Shown here one piece after another: positions 14 to 15,267 of a DNA stretch of 64,000 nucleotides (positions are counted from its first letter, which is position 1; each line of letters begins with the position of its first letter). Made by a program: the position numbers and the translations under genes. The notes beneath the pieces are model-generated. The model was not told the origin of the DNA. It saw only the letters and a list, made by a program, of their open reading frames with translations, and made no database searches. The DNA is taken from sequence record MW650886.1, one strand, 5' to 3'. The stretch is from Escherichia phage vB_EcoM-ZQ1.

Positions 14-1909
14 TTAATCAGAGAATACTAATCCGATTCGCTCCAGAATAAGGTAGTCAGAGGTGGTGGACGATACAACCTTTATAGCCACTGTAGTAAC
101 TAAATGTGGTGGGTTCGATAAATCTGTAAAAAACCACTCAACATCGCCGCCGCCTACTTTTGTGACAGTAGTATCATACACCCTACCAGATGCGATAGTT
201 GGGTTGAAAGTGAGGGACAGGGTGGCGCTGTTACTTGAACCGTTGTTGTCGGTGAAGGCTGCTATAATCGCCTCCAGACGTACTGGTCGCCCAAAGTTTA
301 TGGTGAATTGCTCCCCTGTCTTAATTCGGATAACTCCTGCTGGGTCATTCCATGTAGCAGTTGATGCAGGGTTTAGCCAGAACACATCCCCTGCGACAAT
401 AGGCTTTGTCTGGTATTTATAGCAGTTAGCGGGCAGGGCGTTAGCCTTTCGGAATAGTGTACGTATCAACTTACAGTCTTTTATTTTACTCTTGCGGATG
501 GCAAGACTTTGTTTCACGAGATTATATATCTGGTCATCGTTTTCCAGAAAGTGCCCATTTTTATCAGCATAGAAAGCCCACATGCCAATCTTAGAAAAGT
601 TTTTACAGATGAAGTTATTAACCGCTGTAATCTGTGCGGATTTTAAAGTTGGGGCCTCGTTCTCATACCAATACGCTGTTAGTAACGGGATGATACGTCC
701 TGCCCTCATCCCCTCCTCCTCCATAGCCGACCACATAGAGGCAGCATATCGACGGATACCAACTGCATCTATGAAATGCGCGTACTGGGATGTAAATACA
801 AAATCAATATCCATATGGAGCGGTAGAGAATCCCAGTTAACTTCTGCGTTACTAGCGGCGTACAGCGGTAGGTTACTAAGTGTTTTCACTTTAGCAATAA
901 TCTCCCCCTGGCGAGTAAGAGGGTATGTAGACAAATTCGGCTCGTCGAATAGGTATAGCCCTACTACAGCGTCATGGTCAAATAAAGAAGACAGCTTAGC
1001 GAAATCTGCATCCAGGTCAGATGAATATGCACCATTTGGCACTGCCTGAAGTATGACGTCGAAACCATACAACTCAGCTAAGTCCAGAAACGCACGGTAT
1101 GTATCAACACCTGCAGTCCAGGTGTAGAACATGAATGTCCCTATCCCTAAGTTACTGGCTTTTTCAAACAGAGTAGGGTCCAAGTCCAACTTAGTCCAAA
1201 CTTCTGAAAAAGCAACAATCCCATCAGAGTTTTTCTGTCGTTTAGGTTCGGAAATAGTGAATCCTTTGCCTGTAGCATCATAAAAAGTGTGTGCATTACC
1301 ACTTCCAGGAGACCCTGTGGTGCCAGTGGCACGATAACTAACCGTTCCATATTTGAACCGCAGGAGGACGCTATTTGTTTTTATCTGCGAGACTTTAGCT
1401 GTGGCAATATTTATAGCTTCGTTGACTGGTTCTCCACCCAATTTTGAACGCAAATCGGGGTCAATTTGAAGCTTCCAGTCACCATTACCCACCGGGTTAG
1501 TCTCTGACGTAATAGTTACAGGTAGAGTTCCTAAGTAGGTGTAACCTATGCCATTATGAAACAGTAACTCATTTCGAGTATTCACCACCAAACCAGTAGC
1601 AAACGAATCAGACAGGCTTACGAACTCTCTACGTGTAGCAGCCAGTTCACCCAAATCAACTGTACCTGCTGAATGTACCAGGATTGCATGTTCGTTCAGA
1701 CTTATCGCAGTCGTTCCTGAAACAATACCTGAAGGAAGAGAATAAGCCCGTTGGGTAGACTCATCATAAATTACTTTAAATCCACTGAGGTCAATACCGA
1801 CAGTGAAATAAACGACTTCGTCTTCTTTGACACCGAAATTTCGAGCGATAGATTGTTTGTTAACTTCTATGGAAGTGGAGCCGCGTGGTTGATTGAATTG
1901 AGAAATCAT
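14..1909 (-). CDS. Tailspike / tail fibre protein with C-terminal putative glycosidase (depolymerase) domain
   Basis: 631-aa ORF; N-terminal ~95 aa module (VKEDEVVYFTVGIDLSGFKVIYDESTQRAY...) is near-identical to an internal module of the adjacent 1050-aa ORF; C-terminal half has TIM-barrel glycoside-hydrolase-like motif (LYLFDEPN); late-promoter-like motif and SD upstream. Confidence 0.55.
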   Translation of the reverse strand: MISQFNQPRGSTSIEVNKQSIARNFGVKEDEVVYFTVGIDLSGFKVIYDESTQRAYSLPSGIVSGTTAISLNEHAILVHSAGTVDLGELAATRREFVSLSDSFATGLVVNTRNELLFHNGIGYTYLGTLPVTITSETNPVGNGDWKLQIDPDLRSKLGGEPVNEAINIATAKVSQIKTNSVLLRFKYGTVSYRATGTTGSPGSGNAHTFYDATGKGFTISEPKRQKNSDGIVAFSEVWTKLDLDPTLFEKASNLGIGTFMFYTWTAGVDTYRAFLDLAELYGFDVILQAVPNGAYSSDLDADFAKLSSLFDHDAVVGLYLFDEPNLSTYPLTRQGEIIAKVKTLSNLPLYAASNAEVNWDSLPLHMDIDFVFTSQYAHFIDAVGIRRYAASMWSAMEEEGMRAGRIIPLLTAYWYENEAPTLKSAQITAVNNFICKNFSKIGMWAFYADKNGHFLENDDQIYNLVKQSLAIRKSKIKDCKLIRTLFRKANALPANCYKYQTKPIVAGDVFWLNPASTATWNDPAGVIRIKTGEQFTINFGRPVRLEAIIAAFTDNNGSSNSATLSLTFNPTIASGRVYDTTVTKVGGGDVEWFFTDLSNPPHLVTTVAIKVVSSTTSDYLILERIGLVFSD

Positions 1910-1938
1910 GATAATACCCCATAAAGGATGACCAATAT

Positions 1939-1949
1939 GGGGTATTTAG
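1939..1949 (-). promoter_or_regulatory. Late-promoter-like motif CTAAATACCCC (minus strand) about 30 nt upstream of tailspike start
   Basis: Minus-strand sequence CTAAATACCCCATATTGGTCATCCTTTATGGGGTATTATCATG; resembles T4-type late promoter TATAAATA; same motif recurs upstream of other late genes. Confidence 0.4.
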
Positions 1950-1987
1950 GCTGAACTAATAAATTTATGAACAAAGGTATAACAAGA

Positions 1988-2012
1988 ACCCCGCCGAAGC
2001 GGGGGTTTTTAT
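1988..2012. terminator. GC-rich hairpin (ACCCCGC-CGAA-GCGGGGGT) with flanking T/A runs, intrinsic terminator between the two tailspike genes
   Basis: Perfect stem-loop followed by TTTTTAT on the plus strand; on the minus strand it immediately follows the stop codon of ORF 2009..5161. Confidence 0.5.
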
Positions 2013-5000
2013 AACTTACCTAGTGCGATAGCGACGTACGGCGACGTTGTATTCCCGACAACGTTATACAGCCCAATCGGCGTTCGGTCTAATGATGGTA
2101 GCCTTGCCCCTGCAACACCACCAACACAGCCCAAAGGTAATGGGGTACTAAAGTTTAAATTAAGACGCTCAAAGATGGAGAAAGCCAGCGTTGGCACTAC
2201 CGGCACCAGTTCAATTATTTGAGGTCTTGTGCTAGCCGGAATGGAAACATTGTAAAACGATGCGAATGTTGTCCCGTCAGCCCTTTTCAATAACGGAGTC
2301 ACCGTCATGCCTGACTCCACTGGACCAATCATCAGGAACAGCCTGGTGATACCTGACAATTCAGTATTAACGCTGAAATACATATTACTGCTACTGGAGG
2401 TAGAGTTCACTCCAGAGAGCGAACCGAAACACGGAGTATCTTTTATGATACTTTGCAACCAATTAGCTTTAAAATTAGTTACCCTTTGTGTTCTGTTTTC
2501 CTGGGAGATAAAGAAATTCTGCCGGTGGATGCTGGTTACAACGTTCTCACCACTTCCGGAGTCTGGGACCTCATCAAACGATATTAACTCGTACACCCCA
2601 TCGGACACTTTCTTAGCCGACGCGTAGCAGCTGAAATAATCACCTTGATACACTATCTGTGATGTACTGAATGTGCTTAGATCGTAGGTAATGGTCAAGC
2701 TTACATTGCTGCGGTACATCGGAGTCACAGGACGTGAAGTAGTACCGGTAATTACCAGTGGGTCATCGAAGTCAGTGTACGCCTCAATTCGCGGGCCAGC
2801 GTACACATAATTGCTAACCAGTATTGACCAGCCGTTCGCCCCGGTTAGGTCATTTGTTTTACAAATAGCGATACCACCTGCGGAGCTACCAGTATTTGCT
2901 CTGATTACAGCAATCATTTGCCCGCGATAGTATCCAAGACAGGTTTCATTAATCAGGCTCCGCCCTGGAAAATCACTTATCTGAAAACTTTTAGTAACTG
3001 ACCATGTAGTACTTGCATTCAGAAGTACATCTGATGAAGTTACAAGCTGAACTTCTGTACCTGTTATACTGTAACGAGAAATAATAAGTTTGCCATCCGG
3101 TGTTGTTAATACGTTACCCCACTGATAATAATCATCCGTTGTTACGATGTCAGATTTGCTTGTAAATGCACCAGAGTTATTGAGATCTACGTACCCTACA
3201 ATAGTTTTTTTATAGGTATCTGCGGCGACGTCATGCAGCGTAAAGGCGATAATTAACTGATTACCTGGGTTGCTAACCGAAATGCTTGGCTCTTTTGCCG
3301 CTATACCCGCAGGTGGCACATATTCCCATATAACAGAAGCACTCCCGTCCTTGAGAATTTCTGCGATGCAGGCACTGTGCTTACCTGTTGCCTGATCGAT
3401 GTGTGCTGGCGATCGACGGAAACATAAAAGATTACGACCATTCCAGAATACGGTGTTACCAAATCCGTCATACTGTACCGTGGTATCTGTGTCTTTTAAT
3501 GACGTGAGGGTTGAAACGGCGGTTTTTAATGATGACATTGATTCTTTGGAAGTCACATCAACTGATGAATCCAATATAGATATTTCGTTATATATTGTAT
3601 CGATATTCTCCTGCACAGTTTTCCCATTACTGGAACCTGTAATCTGGGCACCATTATCTGATAATAAATCACTTCTTAAAGAAGCATCACCAACGCTAAC
3701 CCACGCACCAAGACCAGTACCACCAGATGCTTCAGGGGTTGAGCCAGATGGGACAGTTTTTGGAAACTCCCCTTCCCAGCGGTATTTACCTGTTGTATGG
3801 GTAAGTAATTCATTTTTAACATTAAGTGTAGCACCAGAATCAAATGTCCCGGACAATGTGACGTACTCTTCACGAGATACAGCCAATTCCCCAAGATCTA
3901 CAGAACCCGCTGAATGCACCAGTATAGCGGAAGAACTAAGACTGACAGCAGTAGTACCAGGGACAATATCAGCAGGCAAGGGATAAGCCCTTTGCGTCTC
4001 CTTGTCATAAATAACTTTATACCCACTTAACGCAGCACCAACACTAAAATAAACGACCTCTGTATCTTTAACATTGGCTACACGAGCCACTTCCCGCAAA
4101 GTATAATCAATTTGATTATAGATGTTTGGTGTTCCATTGATAATTACAACAACTTCATCCTCTGGTTCCAGTTCTTGCGCCAGAGTGATTTTACTGGTTA
4201 ATGGATCGAATGTGAATCCCAGATTTTTATACTGGCGACTTCCGTTTATATCAATGGCCGGAACATCATCAACAACGACGTCCAACGTGATTTCGGTTTC
4301 ACCACCAATCGCTGAACCCCCATTATAGACCCAAGTAATCGTAGAAGAACTAGAACCACCGCCATTACCCAATTGAATAGGAGTATATTCAATCACCTGA
4401 AGTTCTGTGTTGGCTGGCAAAGAAGGACTGAAAGTGATTACATTCCCATCTAGTGAATATTTGGATTCCGCAAGACGTTTCCCATCAGCATACACGTCCA
4501 CGATTGTTGGTGGAGTATTGAGAGCGACAGAACTTGTTTCAGACGCCAAAATTTTTGTAAAGATTTCACGACTGTAGACACGACCTTGGCCAAGACCGAC
4601 GCCGGATGTGATAACCCAACCTTGTTCAGGTCCAGACCAAGTGAACGTTGCTGATACGTTATCAGTTGTTATAGCCATGTCTTCAGTGGAGCCATACAAA
4701 TTATTTCCAGAAGGAGACACGGTCAATGGGTAAGTGGCAAATTTCCCATAAGCATCACAAATAGTAACGGAATCCCCAATACGCGTAGGGGAAGGGAGAA
4801 CCACTGTAGATGCCCCTGTGGTATTATTAATGAGATAGCCTCGCCCTTCAGTGAGCGTTGCCGTAGAGGCATGCGGAAGGACTTCCCAGCGGATACCACC
4901 GCCACCCAGCGGCAACCATCCACCATTTTCATAGAAGCCCTCAAATTCGTCGGAGTCGGCATTGTAGCGAACGGAAGACGGGAGTCCTGTGCTGGCATTA

Positions 5001-5161
5001 CCCTCGGGTAAAGTCAGGACAGCATCTGGTCCATGCTCAATCGTACCCGTGTTGAGGAGACCAGCCAAAGTAGACTGCTCTTCAGCCGCCAGACCGAGAG
5101 GGAAAACAGGCTGTGTTGGTTTATTAGCCATTTCAAATACCCCTAAATGTGTTCGTTTCAT
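2009..5161 (-). CDS. Large tailspike protein (about 1040-1050 aa); start probably the second ATG at 5131
   Basis: Long ORF with Gly/Ser/Thr-rich beta-rich composition; shares the ~95-aa module with ORF 14..1909 (residues around 350); first ATG lies inside an inverted repeat and the promoter-like motif, second ATG has SD AGGGG. Confidence 0.55.
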   Translation of the reverse strand: MKRTHLGVFEMANKPTQPVFPLGLAAEEQSTLAGLLNTGTIEHGPDAVLTLPEGNASTGLPSSVRYNADSDEFEGFYENGGWLPLGGGGIRWEVLPHASTATLTEGRGYLINNTTGASTVVLPSPTRIGDSVTICDAYGKFATYPLTVSPSGNNLYGSTEDMAITTDNVSATFTWSGPEQGWVITSGVGLGQGRVYSREIFTKILASETSSVALNTPPTIVDVYADGKRLAESKYSLDGNVITFSPSLPANTELQVIEYTPIQLGNGGGSSSSTITWVYNGGSAIGGETEITLDVVVDDVPAIDINGSRQYKNLGFTFDPLTSKITLAQELEPEDEVVVIINGTPNIYNQIDYTLREVARVANVKDTEVVYFSVGAALSGYKVIYDKETQRAYPLPADIVPGTTAVSLSSSAILVHSAGSVDLGELAVSREEYVTLSGTFDSGATLNVKNELLTHTTGKYRWEGEFPKTVPSGSTPEASGGTGLGAWVSVGDASLRSDLLSDNGAQITGSSNGKTVQENIDTIYNEISILDSSVDVTSKESMSSLKTAVSTLTSLKDTDTTVQYDGFGNTVFWNGRNLLCFRRSPAHIDQATGKHSACIAEILKDGSASVIWEYVPPAGIAAKEPSISVSNPGNQLIIAFTLHDVAADTYKKTIVGYVDLNNSGAFTSKSDIVTTDDYYQWGNVLTTPDGKLIISRYSITGTEVQLVTSSDVLLNASTTWSVTKSFQISDFPGRSLINETCLGYYRGQMIAVIRANTGSSAGGIAICKTNDLTGANGWSILVSNYVYAGPRIEAYTDFDDPLVITGTTSRPVTPMYRSNVSLTITYDLSTFSTSQIVYQGDYFSCYASAKKVSDGVYELISFDEVPDSGSGENVVTSIHRQNFFISQENRTQRVTNFKANWLQSIIKDTPCFGSLSGVNSTSSSSNMYFSVNTELSGITRLFLMIGPVESGMTVTPLLKRADGTTFASFYNVSIPASTRPQIIELVPVVPTLAFSIFERLNLNFSTPLPLGCVGGVAGARLPSLDRTPIGLYNVVGNTTSPYVAIALGKL

Positions 5162-5164
5162 CTA

Positions 5165-5175
5165 GGGGTATTTAG
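5165..5175 (-). promoter_or_regulatory. Late-promoter-like motif CTAAATACCCC (minus strand) at the start of the large tailspike gene
   Basis: Minus strand reads AAATACCCCTAGATGAAACGAACACATTTAGGGGTATTTGAAATG; motif is half of an 11-bp inverted repeat. Confidence 0.4.
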
Positions 5176-5183
5176 TTTTCACT

Positions 5184-6395
5184 TTAGAAAGAAGCGACTA
5201 GATTGTAGTCAACGGAGCACGCAGTCGTCGTGTTCGCATTTGTTATCGTCAAACGAAGTTTTGAAGACACTACAGAACCCGCGAATGTCACCGTACCGGA
5301 AGTGGACTTCTGTACCAACAGCTCAGACTTGATAGTCCCGTCACGGGTGATCGTCACGCGGTACGTATCCACGACGTTGCCTGTACCCCATTGTGCACTG
5401 ATCAACACCTGGCAAAGGTTCACCAAATCGAAGTCGGGTAACGCAGAGTTCCCAGAAGCAGAGACAGTGATACCGCTTGGGTTGGTCTTCCCGATCTTCA
5501 CACGGGCAGCAATGTCGGCGTCCAGGCTTGTCATTTTGGCGTTGTAGGTCGATGTGTTGACCTTTCCAGACAACGTGGTATTGATCGTGCCGATATCACT
5601 CTGAATGCCGCTGATGGAACCGTCCAACGCCGCCATCTTCGTGTTATACGTACTGACGTTCACTTTGTTGTTCGTCAGATCCAGTATACTGGTGTCCAGG
5701 CTAGACATCTTGGAGTTGTAAGTCGACGTGTTGACCTTCGCAGCCAGAGTGGTGTTGACAGTGTTGAACTGAGACTGGATATCCAACATATCGGCATCAT
5801 AATCAACAACCTTCAGATAAGCGTTGAAACGCGTATCATTGAAGATAGAAGCCACAAACGCAGATGTGTCGTACTTGACAGTGTCGGTTCCACTCACCAG
5901 TAACATGGTAGTTGGCACACCAGTACCAGAGTAATTGGCCAGATTTGTGCCATCGAAAGTGAGTTTGTTGTAGCCGCCAGGTAACAACTCGATTTTCAGA
6001 CCAGAGTTAACCCCGGCAGTGTCTTCACTCACGCCGTGCTTGCGCAGCATAGACAGATTGACGCCATCAGTGGAATCAACTGGCTCATCTGCGATGGTAA
6101 GTTTCTTCCCCGTAGGGATACTGACACCAGCATTGGCTCGGATTTCTGCGGCAAAAGTCTTCCGCCCGTTGATAGTTTGTTCACCACCGTCGGTACGGAT
6201 CACTTTGTTTTCCAGTGTGTCGTAGATATTATCCACAGAACGCTTCAGCTCATACGTCAAATGAGCTGAAGGAGGAAACAACGAATCATCAACAGCGAAA
6301 TCGTTGACAACATCAGTCTTGCTTATTTTATCGTCAACAGAAGAAAGGATTGCATCAATCTGCTGACCTGTGTATCGACTCAGAAAATCGGCCAT
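5184..6395 (-). CDS. Tail fibre protein with internal sequence repeats
   Basis: 403-aa ORF; repeated units VNTSTYNSKM / VNVSTYNTKM / VNTSTYNAKM typical of fibre shafts; strong SD AAGGAG upstream; located between baseplate-like and tailspike genes. Confidence 0.5.
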   Translation of the reverse strand: MADFLSRYTGQQIDAILSSVDDKISKTDVVNDFAVDDSLFPPSAHLTYELKRSVDNIYDTLENKVIRTDGGEQTINGRKTFAAEIRANAGVSIPTGKKLTIADEPVDSTDGVNLSMLRKHGVSEDTAGVNSGLKIELLPGGYNKLTFDGTNLANYSGTGVPTTMLLVSGTDTVKYDTSAFVASIFNDTRFNAYLKVVDYDADMLDIQSQFNTVNTTLAAKVNTSTYNSKMSSLDTSILDLTNNKVNVSTYNTKMAALDGSISGIQSDIGTINTTLSGKVNTSTYNAKMTSLDADIAARVKIGKTNPSGITVSASGNSALPDFDLVNLCQVLISAQWGTGNVVDTYRVTITRDGTIKSELLVQKSTSGTVTFAGSVVSSKLRLTITNANTTTACSVDYNLVASF

Positions 6396-6397
6396 TT

Positions 6398-7252
6398 TTA
6401 ACTCCTTGAACTTTCTAGGAATACAGTAAACCCAGCAGGATGGAAATGCTGACGGAAGACGCGATCAAACACACCTTCAAAATCAGATACGTTGCCAGGA
6501 ACTCTTATCACATACGTGAATTCATCATAGTAGTAATCGTCACGCATTCCTGTCGCGCCGTCACATTCAAAGTTGTCGTCCAGGCCACCAATTGCTTCCT
6601 TGGGATAATACACACTCACTGGGCAACCAAAGTAAATCCAGAAGAACAATTCAATCGCTTTCTTCGTCCCGCGAATGCGATAAATGTGTTTAAGTAACTT
6701 CAACCAGCGTACATGGTCCAGTGTCCGGCGTTCAGTTCCCTCGACATACACAGAGAGTGTGTCTCCGTCTGAAGTCACCAAACTGTCCGAACCAACTGGC
6801 ACAAACTTCCCGAACTCTAGGAAGGACTTATCAACCGTTCTCTGGAATCCAAAATCAGCATACCAATCGTCGATGCGTTCGTTCTTGTCTTCCATTGAGA
6901 TTAATGGCCGACCGTCCACGTCCAGCAAATCTTCGAAGTCTAGCGCCATCATGTTCTCAAACGTGCGCGTCAGGAACTTGTCTTCCAAGAAGTCTTTGGC
7001 CTCAGTACCTGGTGTCTTGCGCTTCTTGATGTCAATCAACTGCTCAATAGGAGACTGATCCGTATTTGGGTTCACCCAACCACCAGTGTCTGCCAGATAC
7101 GCCAAGATCTCCTCTTCGGTGAATCCCTGCTGTCGATACAACCAGTTGAAGAACGTATCCATAAACTCGATGAATACTGGGAATTCATTCTGGTAAAACA
7201 ATGGGGTTTCATATTTCACCCCATTGTGTCCGTTATTAAGATCTTTGGACAT
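6398..7252 (-). CDS. Hypothetical structural protein (baseplate or fibre-associated by context)
   Basis: 284-aa ORF overlapping the end of the upstream baseplate-like gene by 17 nt (translational coupling); no recognisable motif. Confidence 0.4.
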   Translation of the reverse strand: MSKDLNNGHNGVKYETPLFYQNEFPVFIEFMDTFFNWLYRQQGFTEEEILAYLADTGGWVNPNTDQSPIEQLIDIKKRKTPGTEAKDFLEDKFLTRTFENMMALDFEDLLDVDGRPLISMEDKNERIDDWYADFGFQRTVDKSFLEFGKFVPVGSDSLVTSDGDTLSVYVEGTERRTLDHVRWLKLLKHIYRIRGTKKAIELFFWIYFGCPVSVYYPKEAIGGLDDNFECDGATGMRDDYYYDEFTYVIRVPGNVSDFEGVFDRVFRQHFHPAGFTVFLESSRS

Positions 7253-9014
7253 AACGCACCTCCGGCTCCACAGTTACAGCACCGATGCGGAGCACCTGAT
7301 TCTGTGTGGCCTGAATGTTCTGGTCAAGACCGTCTGGAGACACAATTATTGTCACACCCTCAGTGTTGTAGTTAGATACTATGATACGCTGGAGTTCAAC
7401 AACGCCAGTCGCATAATCAACCGTTCCAACAGCTTGTACCAGATATTCCTTGGTTGTGTCTGTTGTACTCACCTTGTACATATTCAGGACACCACTGACG
7501 TCGCGTATGTAGTAAGTGAATTCGACCTCGGCCGGAAGCGGCTTAAACCCACTGATACGCACAGAACCAGACGCAATCGAGCGCCCATAATCGAATGTGA
7601 AGCTGTCCAGTACCCCATAGTCTGGCTTGAAATGGCGCTTATACTTCACAGAAGTGATGTTTGACACTATCGATCTGTCCATGTCGGTGATGGCCGACTG
7701 TAACTGCTCTTTATCGAACAGTTCGTCGAATCCTTCTAGATTCCCCAAACCCCAGTTAACAACACCGTTCTTCACGACTGTCTTCAACTGCTCTTCGGTA
7801 TAGGACGTGGAAGTCGGATCCCAGAACACGCGGGTGGTGACATCAACATAAGTCAGTTCAGCGTCGACAATCTTGGGTGTGATCGTGCCCACATTGTACT
7901 TGTCTAACGTCGCCACGATATCTGCCTTCTCAGCGTCCGAGAGCGCCTCACCAACAGAAGGTATCACAGCAATGTAAACGTATCCGGAGTCAGGCGGAGA
8001 GAGCGTGTCGCCGCCATATGCTTTGGCGCGGGAGACGTTGGAGAACAGACGCTCGGTCAACACAGCATAATCGACTTCGGCTACCGCCGCACCCTCAGCC
8101 TGATAAGCCAGCGGAGCAAGGCGCTTGATGTCCTCAATGCTCTCTGGGTCCGCACCGCCGGAAGAACGTTCTGACACCAGCTCAACATCTACAAGGTTGA
8201 ATCCCCCGATGGAAGACGCGGAGGACAAGGCAGTGATGTCATTGCCGTCTGCACCAGCTGTCTCCAGATACTGGAGGTACACGACGTTCCCGTCTTCTAC
8301 TCGCTTACAGATATACCCATCACCGAATTCGAACGTGTACATCCCGTCCAACCCCAGCTCAACGAAGTAGAGTTGCGCATACTGGCTCAAATCGAACGGG
8401 CTGACATATCGTGAGAAGGTAGACCGCACGTCAGATGTCTCAGATTCCTGCACCTGCACCACCATATGGTCGATGTCCACGGAAGAAGATGGGATCACAT
8501 AGGTAGAGATCGCGCTGCCTTCCACATCATAGGACTTGTACAGCCAGTTACCCTGTATGAGTTTGATGTTCTCGAACTTGTAAGAGCCGTCTACAAGAGA
8601 GGCACTCACAGGTTGGTCAACCGTGAAGTTATAGGATTTGCCATCCTTCACCCCAATGAACATCGCGCGGCGATCCATTACAATCGTTTCTGGAGCCGTG
8701 CTGGCGTCATATGGAGTGACTGTGACGTTTGCGTACAGGTACGCTGCCTGGTAGTTGTGAGGGGTGTAAGACAAGAACCCAGCCGCAAGACCGACATTAG
8801 AACGCTGTTGAGCAGAGTGAAGATGGCTTTCGCCATTCAGCATGTTCTGCATGAACCCGATAGAGTTGGCATCCGAGGCCAAGATACGCACGATTGCACT
8901 GAGACCAGAACCTTCAAAGTCATAATCCTTGAAAGTTGGATCAGCTTTCATGCGCTTCTTGATAAGATACTCGAAAGCCCTGACATCGAGTGAAGGGACT
9001 GTTTGCGTGGCCAT
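7236..9014 (-). CDS. Baseplate wedge protein (gp6 / baseplate J-like), assignment by size and context
   Basis: About 590-aa ORF; track start is a TTG at 9065, more likely ATG at 9014 (MATQTVPSL...); CTAAATA motif upstream; first gene of the minus-strand structural operon. Confidence 0.4.
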   Translation of the reverse strand: MATQTVPSLDVRAFEYLIKKRMKADPTFKDYDFEGSGLSAIVRILASDANSIGFMQNMLNGESHLHSAQQRSNVGLAAGFLSYTPHNYQAAYLYANVTVTPYDASTAPETIVMDRRAMFIGVKDGKSYNFTVDQPVSASLVDGSYKFENIKLIQGNWLYKSYDVEGSAISTYVIPSSSVDIDHMVVQVQESETSDVRSTFSRYVSPFDLSQYAQLYFVELGLDGMYTFEFGDGYICKRVEDGNVVYLQYLETAGADGNDITALSSASSIGGFNLVDVELVSERSSGGADPESIEDIKRLAPLAYQAEGAAVAEVDYAVLTERLFSNVSRAKAYGGDTLSPPDSGYVYIAVIPSVGEALSDAEKADIVATLDKYNVGTITPKIVDAELTYVDVTTRVFWDPTSTSYTEEQLKTVVKNGVVNWGLGNLEGFDELFDKEQLQSAITDMDRSIVSNITSVKYKRHFKPDYGVLDSFTFDYGRSIASGSVRISGFKPLPAEVEFTYYIRDVSGVLNMYKVSTTDTTKEYLVQAVGTVDYATGVVELQRIIVSNYNTEGVTIIVSPDGLDQNIQATQNQVLRIGAVTVEPEVRYVQRS

Positions 9015-9054
9015 GATAATCTCCATCACCTGAGTTTGAATATGGTGTTGAAGA

Positions 9055-9368: not shown

Positions 9369-9941
9369 ATGCATATCAACACTGCTGTATTAAAACACAT
9401 CATCCCTTTGTTAGAAAAATATGAAGGGAAAGTAATGTCTGAAGTGCCATTTGAGAAAATTCGCACCGAAATAAAGCACCTGACAAATAAAGATGTCAAT
9501 TACCGTCGTATCCTTTCTTCTGGGCTAGAACTTGCAAAGTCTGACTTCAAAACATCTTCGACATTCTCTTTTAATATCGATGCCACTACGACACTAATAG
9601 ATGAATTAACGCAGTCATCGCAATCTCGCCGCGACCGCTTTCGTCATTTGTGTGTTTCCAATGATTTCCCCAGCACCCGCGTTGGGATCAAATTGGAGGC
9701 GATTCGTTCTGACATTTGCTTCACGATAAATTATATTGTCGAGCCAGGCTCCCAACACATTTATTTTGCCGCAGTGATCGGTTTCTATGGCACTTCTATC
9801 AATGGGTGGGCTGAGCGCGTTGAATTAAAAGAGACACTGAACAAACACAGCACTCCTTCCACTCATTATATGTCACAGGCCGCTGCTCGTGAATATGTGT
9901 ATCTGATCGAGCGCGATGTGAAGTTAAAAGTGGTAAAATAA
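9369..9941 (+). CDS. Hypothetical protein
   Basis: 190-aa ORF with SD AAGGAACC; diverges from the minus-strand structural operon; no recognisable motif. Confidence 0.45.
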   Translation: MHINTAVLKHIIPLLEKYEGKVMSEVPFEKIRTEIKHLTNKDVNYRRILSSGLELAKSDFKTSSTFSFNIDATTTLIDELTQSSQSRRDRFRHLCVSNDFPSTRVGIKLEAIRSDICFTINYIVEPGSQHIYFAAVIGFYGTSINGWAERVELKETLNKHSTPSTHYMSQAAAREYVYLIERDVKLKVVK

Positions 9942-10145: not shown

Positions 10146-11923
10146 CTCAAAGAGGAGAGGACTTTTCAAATTAGCTGGGCTGCAGTAAAGTATTAAGCGT
10201 GAGGCGAACAACGCATCGAGTTAGGCATCTAAAGCCGACCTCGCTAATCCCAGTCTCAGGGGCATGCGTGAATAGAGGCGTGATATCCACCTTGCATGGT
10301 GTCAGTGGACGCACTTGACCGTCGGAGAACGAAACTCCCTGTTGTAGCGTGATTAGCTCAGAATCAGAGAGCACCCTGTTGGCAAGTCGACACCAACATA
10401 TAAGGGGAGGTCGGGGGCGCTAATCTCCATCACGCCGGCAACATTATGAGTCTTCCACAGAGGGTTCATAATGTTGCGTCAAAGGGCAACAAGGTTCCTG
10501 TTGGTTGAATTAACTTGATTCATAGTTCCTACTGATCTTCCCGGATTCGAAGGAGCACCAACAGGCGAGGCCGGATGCGTAAGTTCCGGTAAATCGATGG
10601 TGATACCCTCGCCAACAAAAATAAAAGGTTTTATCAATAACGGGTTACAAAGTATAGTTAACCCACTGAAGCGAAAAGCTGTTTGGGCATTAGACAAACA
10701 CTTCGATGTGAACCCAGGACATGGCGTCTTGTGCTCAAACAGGTTTTCGTTTTCGTTGTGAGTGACTTTGCGGGTTTTTAGAAACTGACCAAGCAAATAA
10801 CTGCTAATGATTCCGAAGTTCTGATGGCGGCGTAACAGCCTATAAGTCAGTGAGGTCTTCCGATTCCTCATCACCAAATTCGGCGCACTAAAATAGACGG
10901 GAGGGTGTGATTAATAATCTCCCGTCGACAATGCCGTTATATCTGACTGTCCAAAGGGGATAAGCTCCTGAGTAAGCAGAGGTGGGTTGCCTAAGTCAGA
11001 TGGGATGTAAGGTCAGCGCTGGCCAAGCATTTGGGTTCGACTCCTAAAAACGGCTCCACATCTTTGAGGATATTCTCACGAGTATCTTGAAAGATGTGAG
11101 CGAAGTCTTGCCATCAGCCCTGATCCCTGGCAGGTGAAGGGCACACAAATCGAAGTGCCTTGACAATTTATCTTAAACCCAAAGGTTGATCTACAAATTG
11201 GACGGCCAATCCGGTGGACGATAACAGCATATTGGGCTATACTGTTGAGTCAGGGCACTTCGATTTGTGAACTTGAGAGAGCGTTGGGTGAAATAGACCA
11301 TGCCTTGCAGATTGCGATGCCTACACATTCCGGACACTGGTGGGCACCAAGAAGAACTCAGTAGCAGACGAGCCATCAGGGTTAGCTACCCGGCGCGGCG
11401 AGGACTGGGAGGCCGAACTAAGGGGAAACCCGAGACAGGCGTAGTATTCTCAAGTTCACAAAATGAAGAGCATTTAAAGAGTTCGATTCTCTTTCAGGCC
11501 ATTCGTGGTGTGATGTGAGTCATGAATGTTCTTCATCTTTGGGTGATTCTATGTTGCCGGGCTATCAACCCATGCTTGCTAGAGCAACCAGCCAGCCTCG
11601 TTTGGTCCGAGCGTTAGAGGACAAGTTGCTTCTACATGGAAGCTGCGAGTTGCGACATTGGTTGCAACTTTGATGGCTCTGGATTTTATAAACCATGTCT
11701 ATGGGTGACGCGGGATCTTTAGTACCAGAGCTATCAAAGTTGTGTCCAACCCGATCTTACAAGCCCGTATCCCGGTCTGGTTAAGACTTGTAAGTGGAAA
11801 GCCCTGGAAAAATAAACGCCTGTGGCGAGGCTATGGTGCAAGCCAAAGACCCACAGAAGCGCATGCCGTGAGGCAGCACAAACAGGCATGCATGAACTGA
11901 TCATGTACAAACGGGATAAAGGG

Positions 11924-12620: not shown

Positions 12621-12741
12621 CCTGTCTTATTATCTTCTTATCGACCCAAGCATGTCCTCCTTTATCGTAGTTTGTTCAATGATACAAAGGGGGTTTAAAA
12701 TTTAACCGTTAACCCCCTATCATAGATTTGAGGATACACTA

Positions 12742-13398
12742 ATGCGTAATGTTTCTATCTGGGAATTGAACGAAGTGATTTCCCATGACACCCCTCCAAT
12801 TGTCAGACTCTTCCGATACAAGGGTGTCAAGCGCACTCTGAATGAGTTCCTGTCGCCTGTTTACGTCTACCGTGATGGCGGGTTCTTCTGCCGCGATAAA
12901 AACATCCCGAACCTTGGTATGACGTTTGATTTGAGTATCAAAGGCCAGGTTGTATTGATGGGTTATGGTAGCCTGGAACAATCTGAGAAAGGCCAGGGCG
13001 CTCCACTTATGGTCTTCGGTTCGTTTGAACAAGCCGTGCACTGGCTGATCAGAAACGGATATGATTTCTATGGCGAAGAAAGCGCCAATTGGCGTCGTCG
13101 CAAGGTCAAGTCTGTTGATCTGGTGGATTTGAATCTGATGTACCAGGCCATGGCTCGCGAGTACGAAAAGAATCTCGTCAAGCCTGTCGCTCAGGAGAAC
13201 AATGTTGTTAACGACGCAACTGAGTCTTCTCATCATGACGTGAACATCGTTCCAGCCTGTGAAACGAAAGCGCCGACACCACCTACTCCTCCGACCAGTC
13301 GTGTTCTGAATGATCAGGGCGCTCCGGTAAAACAAAAGGTCAAGAAGCCGACTTTCATGGAAAACATGATGAAGTTCCTTCGTCTGTTCAAGAAGTAA
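12742..13398 (+). CDS. Hypothetical protein
   Basis: 218-aa ORF with SD GAGGAT; the overlapping antisense ORF 12739..13335 is judged a shadow. Confidence 0.45.
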   Translation: MRNVSIWELNEVISHDTPPIVRLFRYKGVKRTLNEFLSPVYVYRDGGFFCRDKNIPNLGMTFDLSIKGQVVLMGYGSLEQSEKGQGAPLMVFGSFEQAVHWLIRNGYDFYGEESANWRRRKVKSVDLVDLNLMYQAMAREYEKNLVKPVAQENNVVNDATESSHHDVNIVPACETKAPTPPTPPTSRVLNDQGAPVKQKVKKPTFMENMMKFLRLFKK

Positions 13399-14768: not shown

Positions 14769-14779
14769 CTAAATACCCC
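14769..14779 (+). promoter_or_regulatory. Late-promoter-like motif CTAAATACCCC upstream of ORF 14809
   Basis: GCCTAAATACCCCCATATGG about 30 nt upstream of SD GAGGAA and ATG 14809. Confidence 0.4.
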
Positions 14780-14808: not shown

Positions 14809-15267
14809 ATGCCAACCTCCAAATTGTTTGAATCAGAATACACCAATGACATCCCTGTATGGACTGGTGTTCAAGACGGTATCACGATTGAGCTGTTTGA
14901 TCGTGAAGAGACAGGCGCGGAAGAGATCTATGCAGGCGTTGAAGGCACTGATGTTGTCCGCGCCGCCGTAGCACTTGCTACCTTCCTGGAAGATGCGCCG
15001 ATTGATGGCGTGCCGTTCGAGGCGCACGTAGATCCCAAGGATCCGACCTCTATCATCATTACAGTGAATGGGGTGCCATACACTTCGTACAGTATCGAGA
15101 CGGACGAAGAGGGCAGCGGAGCGCTGTATATTGCCACTGACCTGCAGCTGGAAGACGATGAGATGGATTATCTGATTCAGAACGGGGTGCTGCCACCGTT
15201 TACCGATGAAGAACTGGACACGGAACTGGCCGCCGTCGGGGACGACGAAGACTTCTGGGAAGAATAA
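14809..15267 (+). CDS. Acidic hypothetical protein
   Basis: 152-aa ORF, very acidic C-terminus (DEDFWEE); SD GAGGAA. Confidence 0.5.
   Translation: MPTSKLFESEYTNDIPVWTGVQDGITIELFDREETGAEEIYAGVEGTDVVRAAVALATFLEDAPIDGVPFEAHVDPKDPTSIIITVNGVPYTSYSIETDEEGSGALYIATDLQLEDDEMDYLIQNGVLPPFTDEELDTELAAVGDDEDFWEE

Follow-up and report, generated by a model that had tools for sequence, protein, structure and literature searches.

Adjacent tailspike genes of Escherichia phage vB_EcoM-ZQ1 share the Ackermannviridae head module and carry C-terminal cassettes close to T7-like gp17

The branched tailspike complex of the Ackermannviridae, known in most detail here from the Kuttervirus CBA120, for which crystal structures of tailspike proteins (TSPs) 1-4 are available, is the closest described system to the two adjacent tailspike genes of Escherichia phage vB_EcoM-ZQ1 (ZQ1) reported below. 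In CBA120, TSP1, TSP3, and TSP4 have homologous D1 and D2 domains, and TSP4 has an extra region of ∼340 residues made up of a baseplate anchor domain (AD) and the XD1, XD2, and XD3 domains (Chao 2022, PMC8825819). The docking platforms are XD2 and XD3, not the head; specifically, D1 of TSP1 sits on XD3 of TSP4, TSP2 and TSP4 are joined via XD2, and the TSP3 head binds only the preformed TSP2:TSP4 complex and not TSP4-N335 alone (PMC8825819). Analytical ultracentrifugation (AUC) showed that TSP4-N335, which has no head, forms all of the binary, ternary, and quaternary complexes (Chao 2022, PMC8825819), and functions of the AD, XD, and head are also known from Sørensen 2024 (PMC11414711). The limits of D1 (TD1) have been set at residues 1-96 in TSP1 and TSP3 and 344-421 in TSP4, and the GTTAVSL motif at its end has been proposed as a recombination site (Sørensen 2021, PMC8432352). 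ZQ1 itself was already deposited and included in a published comparison, in which it and pSal-SNUABM-2 are stated to encode only two tsp genes (Sørensen 2023, PMC10791037); it is an Agtrevirus. The analysis below covers a 64-kb stretch of ZQ1, referred to as the window, and all positions are numbered along it. The two genes very probably represent tsp4 and a tsp3-type gene of such a branched complex, sharing its head module with the D1 plug and carrying swapped, T7-like C-terminal cassettes.

Both tailspike open reading frames (ORFs) lie side by side on the minus strand, and the regions that correspond to known parts of the CBA120 proteins are as follows.

14 to 1909, minus strand: tsp3-type tailspike gene, 631 amino acids, 100% identical to the 'tail spike protein' of ZQ1; its N-terminal 159 residues match CBA120 TSP3
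1622 to 1909, minus strand: D1 (TD1) of the 631-residue protein, residues 1-96, the presumed docking plug, with GTTAISL at residues 65-71
1415 to 1621, minus strand: D2 (TD2) with the first part of the neck in the 631-residue protein, residues ∼97-165, a divergent 'orphan' D2
2009 to 5161, minus strand: tsp4 gene, ORF of 1050 amino acids; the probable true start is the ATG at 5131, giving 1040 amino acids
4118 to 5131, minus strand: TSP4-N, the AD followed by gp10-like XD1, XD2, and XD3, ORF residues 11-348
3665 to 4111, minus strand: D1-D2 head of TSP4, ORF residues 351-499, with GTTAVSL at 402-408 and PF18668 over D2

Agtrevirus AV101 (Ackermannviridae) was the closest record in the phage collection searched, with 98.3% DNA identity over positions 4150-7300 of the window, from the 5′ end of tsp4 through the baseplate genes, and an average of 96.3% identity for the pieces aligned over 1646-9000. 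The locus runs in the order gp6-like gene, baseplate wedge gene (PF23786), a gene for a 403-residue protein, tsp4, and tsp3-type gene, and is syntenic with AV101; with the baseplate wedge genes to one side of it and the tsp3-type gene to the other, tsp4 is placed as expected of an Ackermannviridae TSP4. The real tsp4 product probably begins at the second ATG, at 5131 (MANKPTQP..., 1040 residues), because CBA120 TSP4 and the AV101 homolog begin there and the first ATG, at 5161, falls in the loop of an upstream hairpin.

The larger protein resembles CBA120 TSP4 (ORF213; PDB 7REJ/7RFO/7RFV for TSP4-N and 5W6H for D1-D4) in having AD-XD1-XD2-XD3 followed by a D1-D2 head, and in the location of its gene beside the baseplate wedge genes. 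ORF residues 11-348 match CBA120 TSP4-N (7REJ/7RFO; E 2.5e-197) and are 97-99% identical to the same region of AV101 and LHE287 TSP4, residues 354-552 match the CBA120 TSP4 head/body structure 5W6H, and PF18668 (Tail_spike_N) was found at residues 427-492 with 79 bits against a cut-off of 25. The smaller protein resembles TSP3 of CBA120 (ORF212; 5W6F/6NW9) and of AV101 in its N-terminal D1-D2 head and in being encoded immediately downstream of tsp4. Residues 1-159 match CBA120 TSP3 (5W6F/6NW9) with E 3.5e-59, and TSP1 (4OJ5) matches less well; the head stands at the extreme N-terminus without XD domains, as in Ackermannviridae TSP3. Identity to AV101 TSP3 is 100% over residues 1-25 and 81% over residues 26-100, whereas AV101 TSP1 reaches only 52% over the first 25 residues; over residues 26-100, the D1 domains of TSP1 and TSP3 are identical at 49 of 75 positions. 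The protein departs from CBA120 and AV101 TSP3 in its divergent D2 (∼40% identity), in a body predicted to be a TIM barrel of glycoside hydrolase clan A (GH-A) type with a β-sandwich rather than a β-helix, and in that its TSP2 partner is reportedly absent from ZQ1.

The initial annotation had described a module of ∼95 residues shared between the two proteins at different positions. The sharing is real, and pairwise alignment places it far above chance: residues 14-157 of the 631-residue protein and 351-499 of the 1050-residue ORF are identical at 77 of 149 positions (52%, E 5e-39, BLASTP), and the Smith-Waterman local score is 356, compared with a mean of 46 (standard deviation 6.4, maximum 79) for 200 shuffles. 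The length, however, is ∼145-150 residues, the ∼95 residues corresponding to the better-conserved D1; the first part (D1) is identical at 55 of 88 positions (62%) and the second part (D2) at 22 of 56 (39%). A recent tandem duplication, or a chance or compositional match, might be suggested by the adjacency of the genes on the same strand, but the alignment, the shuffling, and a DNA identity of only 68% over 243 nucleotides (nt) between the two copies rule this out, and the same paralogous pair also occurs in CBA120, AV101, and other members of the family, so that the chance of either explanation being right is negligible. The low DNA identity therefore marks the module copies as old paralogs rather than products of recent duplication.

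The shared module is the TSP 'head', consisting of D1 (TD1), D2 (TD2; Tail_spike_N in Pfam), and the first part of the α-helical neck, and as such it is already known and well described from the Ackermannviridae branched tailspike complex. It appears near residue 350 in TSP4 because the head there comes after the 340-residue AD-XD1-XD2-XD3 region. The proposed recombination motif was found in both ZQ1 spikes, as GTTAISL at residue 65 of the 631-residue protein and GTTAVSL at ORF residue 402 of TSP4. By analogy, AD-XD1-XD2-XD3 of TSP4 would anchor the complex to the baseplate and offer trimeric platforms for other spikes, and D1 of the 631-residue protein would be a plug docking on an XD3 platform, as shown for the CBA120 homologs. 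Phage T4 gp10 and the phage G7C gp66 adaptors likewise use gp10-like XD domains as trimeric docking platforms, a likeness that concerns the XD region of TSP4 and not the shared module.

The module had also been proposed as an attachment or branching domain, and of these roles attachment fits the tsp3-type protein, whereas branching belongs to the XD domains of TSP4. A branching function for the module itself, with other spikes carried on it, could be argued from its conservation and its place in TSP4, after the N-terminal region and before the catalytic body, and from the possibility that TSP3 heads touch TSP1 heads in the modelled quaternary complex. The branching contacts of CBA120, however, map to XD2 (TSP2-TSP4) and XD3 (TSP1, TSP3), and the headless TSP4-N335, to which ZQ1 TSP4-N is a close homolog over 338 residues, forms every complex; the published AUC data thus largely refute a branching module, and we regard it as very improbable. 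The further suggestion of a common structural domain with exchanged C-terminal modules was right, although it is published already. As a textbook feature of the branched complex, the shared head adds nothing conceptually when found again.

Downstream of the heads, the two proteins carry different C-terminal cassettes, with predicted domains as follows.

455 to 1372, minus strand: small β domain and predicted (β/α)8 TIM barrel of clan GH-A type in the 631-residue protein, residues ∼180-485, with invariant D322-E323-P324 after β4 and Y415-E416-N417-E418 near β7
17 to 454, minus strand: C-terminal helical linker and β-sandwich of the 631-residue protein, residues ∼486-631, with strands predicted by AlphaFold2 (AF2) at fragment residues 366-470
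2507 to 3454, minus strand: predicted six-bladed sialidase-like β-propeller of TSP4, ORF residues ∼570-885, with invariant FRRSP at 581-585 and Asp-box-like motifs
2012 to 2455, minus strand: C-terminal β-rich domain of TSP4, ORF residues ∼903-1050, from AF2 secondary structure with partly low confidence
3688 to 3784, minus strand: likely crossover patch within D2 of tsp4 (gene nt 1378-1474, residues 460-491), similar to both Agtrevirus tsp4 and T7-like gp17

Judged by sequence comparison, both cassettes are closest to the gp17 tail fibers of ∼40-kb T7-like phages. In tsp4, blastn matched nt 1-1474 to AV101 tsp4 and nt 1378-3153 to gp17 on a T7-like contig of ∼40.6 kb (L005), each at 91% identity; the 97-nt overlap of these two matches inside D2 is likely the crossover site. 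The gene for the 631-residue protein matches AV101 tsp3 over nt 1-260 (92% identity) and, over nt 556-1883, gp17 on a second T7-like contig, L003 (88.8%). In the encoded protein, similarity to AV101 TSP3 stops at approximately residue 88-100 and the similarity to gp17 begins at residue 102, at the D1/D2 boundary, which corresponds exactly to residue 439 of TSP4.

The gp17 homologs are located between gp15/gp16 and the holin/terminase genes in the T7-like genomes. Those with PF03906 and PF18668, such as LSB-1 gp17 (KC425724) and the metagenomic P0002, P0005, and P0017, have the same D2 and receptor-binding cassettes, at 89-93% protein and 89-91% DNA identity (89-93% for the TSP4 cassette), and gp17 of phage LSB-1, labeled 'lyase' (KC425724.1), is 90% identical over the cassette. 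They differ in their N-terminal adaptor, which is a T7 tail-binding domain in gp17 but D1 or AD-XD1-3 in the ZQ1 spikes. The same cassettes were also found behind P22-type head-binding (PF09008) as well as T7-type (PF03906) N-terminal adaptors. The mobile unit thus appears to be D2 together with the receptor-binding body, with D1 acting as a plug specific to the Ackermannviridae, and the head would double as a patch of homology through which foreign receptor-binding cassettes could enter the gene after D1 or inside D2. The near-identical cassettes with their D2 linker in T7-like gp17 make this a clean example of host-range module exchange across families, which is useful for the engineering of chimeric spikes.

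A different origin for the tsp3-type gene would be a deletion chimera, formed by recombination between tsp3 and tsp1 heads with loss of the tsp3 body, tsp2, and the tsp1 head. This would account for a phage with two tsp genes and a TSP3-type D1, the heads are homologous (68% identical at the DNA level to that of AV101 tsp1), and the tsp3 similarity does end at approximately residue 88-100. However, 68% is low for homologous recombination, D2 of the 631-residue protein is no nearer to D2 of TSP1 (24 of 60 positions identical) than to that of TSP3 (21 of 57) or TSP4 (23 of 60), and the nearest relatives of its cassette are T7-like gp17 fibers and not any Agtrevirus TSP1. With a D2 equidistant from all heads (37-42% identity to any head examined, Agtrevirus or T7-like) and a body closest to gp17, the chimera is unsupported and unlikely, and acquisition of the body from a T7-like fiber is preferred.

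The fold of the cassettes was assessed from AF2 models. For residues 161-631 of the smaller protein, the model (predicted local distance difference test score, pLDDT, of 77 from a 15-sequence alignment) consists of a small β domain, alternating β/α elements at ∼231-484, and a β-sandwich at ∼526-630, in full-length numbering. This is a (β/α)8 barrel with a β-sandwich, and not the β-helix body expected of an Ackermannviridae TSP3. The TIM barrel that had been placed at the end of this protein is accordingly supported by the model but is central, the β-sandwich following it. The invariant D322-E323-P324 stands directly after predicted β4, and invariant E416 and E418 come after the β7 region, where pLDDT is near 50-70. 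GH-A enzymes (of the GH5, GH42, GH35, and GH2 kind) carry an N-E-P-like acid/base motif after β4 and a nucleophile Glu after β7, and assignment of these residues as GH-A catalytic residues is tentative.

The barrel belongs to a tiny sequence family, with 13 cluster representatives among 1.84 billion, all of them 500-760 residues long, the size of a fiber or spike. BFVD holds the exact protein (A0A8E7KXC2), and the next fold relatives there are a 'putative capsular polysaccharide depolymerase' of Acinetobacter phage Aci07 and a 'lyase' of phage PE3-1 (A0A060DBA7). TIM-barrel domains were found in four of 313 Acinetobacter baumannii phage spikes, including that of Aci07, and those four phages were reported to have depolymerase activity (PMC11823257).

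The model of TSP4 ORF residues 531-1050 (pLDDT 74) has the six-bladed propeller fold (GH33/GH58-type) and not the β-helix D3 of CBA120 TSP1-4, so that the ZQ1 TSP4 differs from its CBA120 counterpart in having a predicted sialidase-like β-propeller for its body. Sialidases of this type have an RIP motif with an Arg triad, Asp-boxes, and a Tyr-Glu nucleophile pair. The invariant FRRSP (581-585) resembles the sialidase RIP motif; other invariant residues include R696, R754, R810, R817, Y846, and E864, and an Asp-box-like TNDLTGANGW is present. No BNR or sialidase Pfam family matched the TSP4 cassette. Compared with the TIM-barrel fiber/spike domains of Acinetobacter phages (vB_AbaP_46-62_Aci07) and the phi92 and K1F endosialidases, sequence identity is only 12-17%, and the ZQ1 cassettes are without BNR or GH Pfam signatures; for placement of the cassettes in families, fold comparison alone was informative. 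In the models, both spikes appear to depart from the β-helix body described in the family literature, and the two cassettes would presumably cleave distinct polysaccharides on the surface of an E. coli host, O- or K-antigen.

The number of spikes bears on how the tsp3-type protein could attach. The ZQ1 pair of TSP4 and a TSP3-type head does not fit the CBA120 assembly model, in which TSP3 needs TSP2:TSP4. Two relatives do fit it: the Agtrevirus LHE287 (Escherichia phage, PP761450) has TSP4, TSP2, and TSP1 without tsp3, a loss of the terminal branch, and pSal-SNUABM-02 has TSP4, TSP2, and a head-only remnant of 159 residues. This last ORF, at 6623-7102 on the minus strand of the Salmonella phage record (MT857002), is annotated 'putative tail spike protein' and consists of a D1-D2 head without a body, 52-55% identical to the AV101 TSP1 and TSP3 heads; lying downstream of tsp2, it is what remains of a truncated spike.

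ZQ1 may be a genuine two-spike phage in which TSP4, with its XD3 (or XD2) left vacant, receives the tsp3-type head directly and the 631-residue protein takes a role like that of TSP1. The published count of two tsp genes agrees with this, as does the lack of any TSP1, TSP2, or VriC homolog elsewhere within the 64-kb window; TSP1 and TSP3 have homologous D1 domains, and without TSP1, XD3 of TSP4 would be unoccupied. On the other hand, CBA120 TSP3 does not bind TSP4-N335 alone, and the first 25 residues of the ZQ1 protein are of TSP3 type throughout and only about half identical to TSP1. Co-adaptation of XD3 to a TSP3 plug was considered and rejected, since ZQ1 XD3 has only 0-4 substitutions relative to phages with three or four spikes and is essentially identical to theirs. 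In addition, a mere 13 nt separate the start of the window from the stop codon for the 631-residue protein, and other Agtrevirus records (e.g., A221 and SP-9-14) are linearized in or beside the tsp cluster; therefore, tsp2 and tsp1 could be found at the opposite end of the deposited ZQ1 sequence. Direct docking in a two-spike phage is on balance doubtful, and its fullest form, a two-spike Agtrevirus with a TSP3-type head directly on an unchanged TSP4 platform and with both spikes bearing non-β-helix enzymes captured from T7-like podophage fibers by crossover in D2, is put forward just as tentatively. If it were true, the published assembly rule would be relaxed and the scaffold would take any fold; and should tsp4 and a tsp3-type gene really be the full tsp complement of ZQ1, the rule that TSP3 needs TSP2 would not be general, which matters for the design of synthetic TSP complexes.

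Several observations weigh against the assignment of the pair to a branched complex with enzymatic T7-like cassettes. PF18668 was not matched in the 631-residue protein at E<=0.01, although its D2 aligns with that of TSP4 at 39% identity. The AF2 models are of only moderate confidence (pLDDT 74-77), and prediction is poor around the presumed β7 nucleophile. Pfam at E<=10 and profile searches of the PDB gave no family and no solved structure related in sequence to either cassette, the barrel included. The close or fold-level relatives LSB-1 gp17 and PE3-1 are labeled 'lyase', which does not fit a GH-A hydrolase; that annotation may be wrong. If ZQ1 is really without tsp2, the CBA120 rule gives no account of how the 631-residue spike is attached, and docking, trimerization, and enzymatic activity of the ZQ1 spikes are all read across from homologs. 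An Agtrevirus scaffold with two predicted non-β-helix enzymatic cassettes is a local detail of modest value set against a family literature of β-helices, and the points that deserve attention, likewise of modest value, are these two cassettes, their derivation from T7-like phages with crossover placed in D2, and the possibility that ZQ1 bears just two spikes.

Upstream of both tailspike genes, an 11-nt motif coincides with a strong hairpin, and a terminator-like hairpin lies between the genes (MFE, minimum free energy).

5134 to 5175, minus strand: CTAAATACCCC motif and hairpin right upstream of the tsp4 start, MFE -21 kcal/mol, z -7.8
1913 to 1949, minus strand: CTAAATACCCC motif and hairpin right upstream of the start of the gene for the 631-residue protein, MFE -19.9 kcal/mol, z -4.6
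14769 to 14779, plus strand: third copy of CTAAATACCCC, upstream of the ORF at 14809-15267, motif without hairpin
1989 to 2004, minus strand: terminator-like GC hairpin between tsp4 and the gene for the 631-residue protein, a perfect 6-bp CCCCGC-TTCG-GCGGGG with a T-rich tail, right after the tsp4 stop
9001 to 9035, 11485 to 11518, and 15066 to 15104 in L001: motif/hairpin sites
9001 to 9034 and 12653 to 12691 in LHE287 (L002): motif/hairpin sites
9695 to 9729 and 12780 to 12818 in pSal-SNUABM-02 (L006): motif/hairpin sites

The motif occurs three times in the window, compared with 0.01 expected. Ahead of each tailspike gene it supplies the 5′ arm of the hairpin (AAATACCCC...GGGGTAT), the 3′ arm of which ends 4-6 nt before the ATG, and the hairpin was also found before tsp2, tsp3, and tsp4 in AV101, LHE287, and pSal-SNUABM-02. 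Motif and hairpin together may be a late promoter plus a tsp-specific 5′ untranslated region or recombination element; a similar motif has been proposed as a ViI-like late promoter. Each gene has its own upstream motif, and the hairpin at 1989-2004 looks like an intrinsic terminator between the tailspike genes. Generic scans for sigma-70 promoters and terminators gave results at chance level, the total of terminator-like sites in the region being no higher than expected by chance, and a tandem-repeat scan of the region returned nothing relevant.

The genes on the other side of tsp4 are the following.

5184 to 6395, minus strand: gene for a 403-residue protein, between tsp4 and the baseplate wedge gene
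6398 to 7252: baseplate wedge gene, PF23786
7236 to 9065: gp6-like wedge gene

The 403-residue protein (phrog_3838) contains repeated segments of the form VNTSTYN(A/S/T)KM(S/T/A)(S/A)LD, has a weak coiled-coil-like Pfam match to NPV_P10 (E 0.0017, below threshold), and is annotated variously as tail fiber, connector, or hypothetical. Elsewhere among the records compared, OR844942.1, 'Enterococcus phage Efm 3-10' (111,375 bp), has a Kuttervirus-like tsp/baseplate region that is 78.6% identical to the window, as are the Salmonella Kuttervirus records; this record is probably mislabeled or contaminated.

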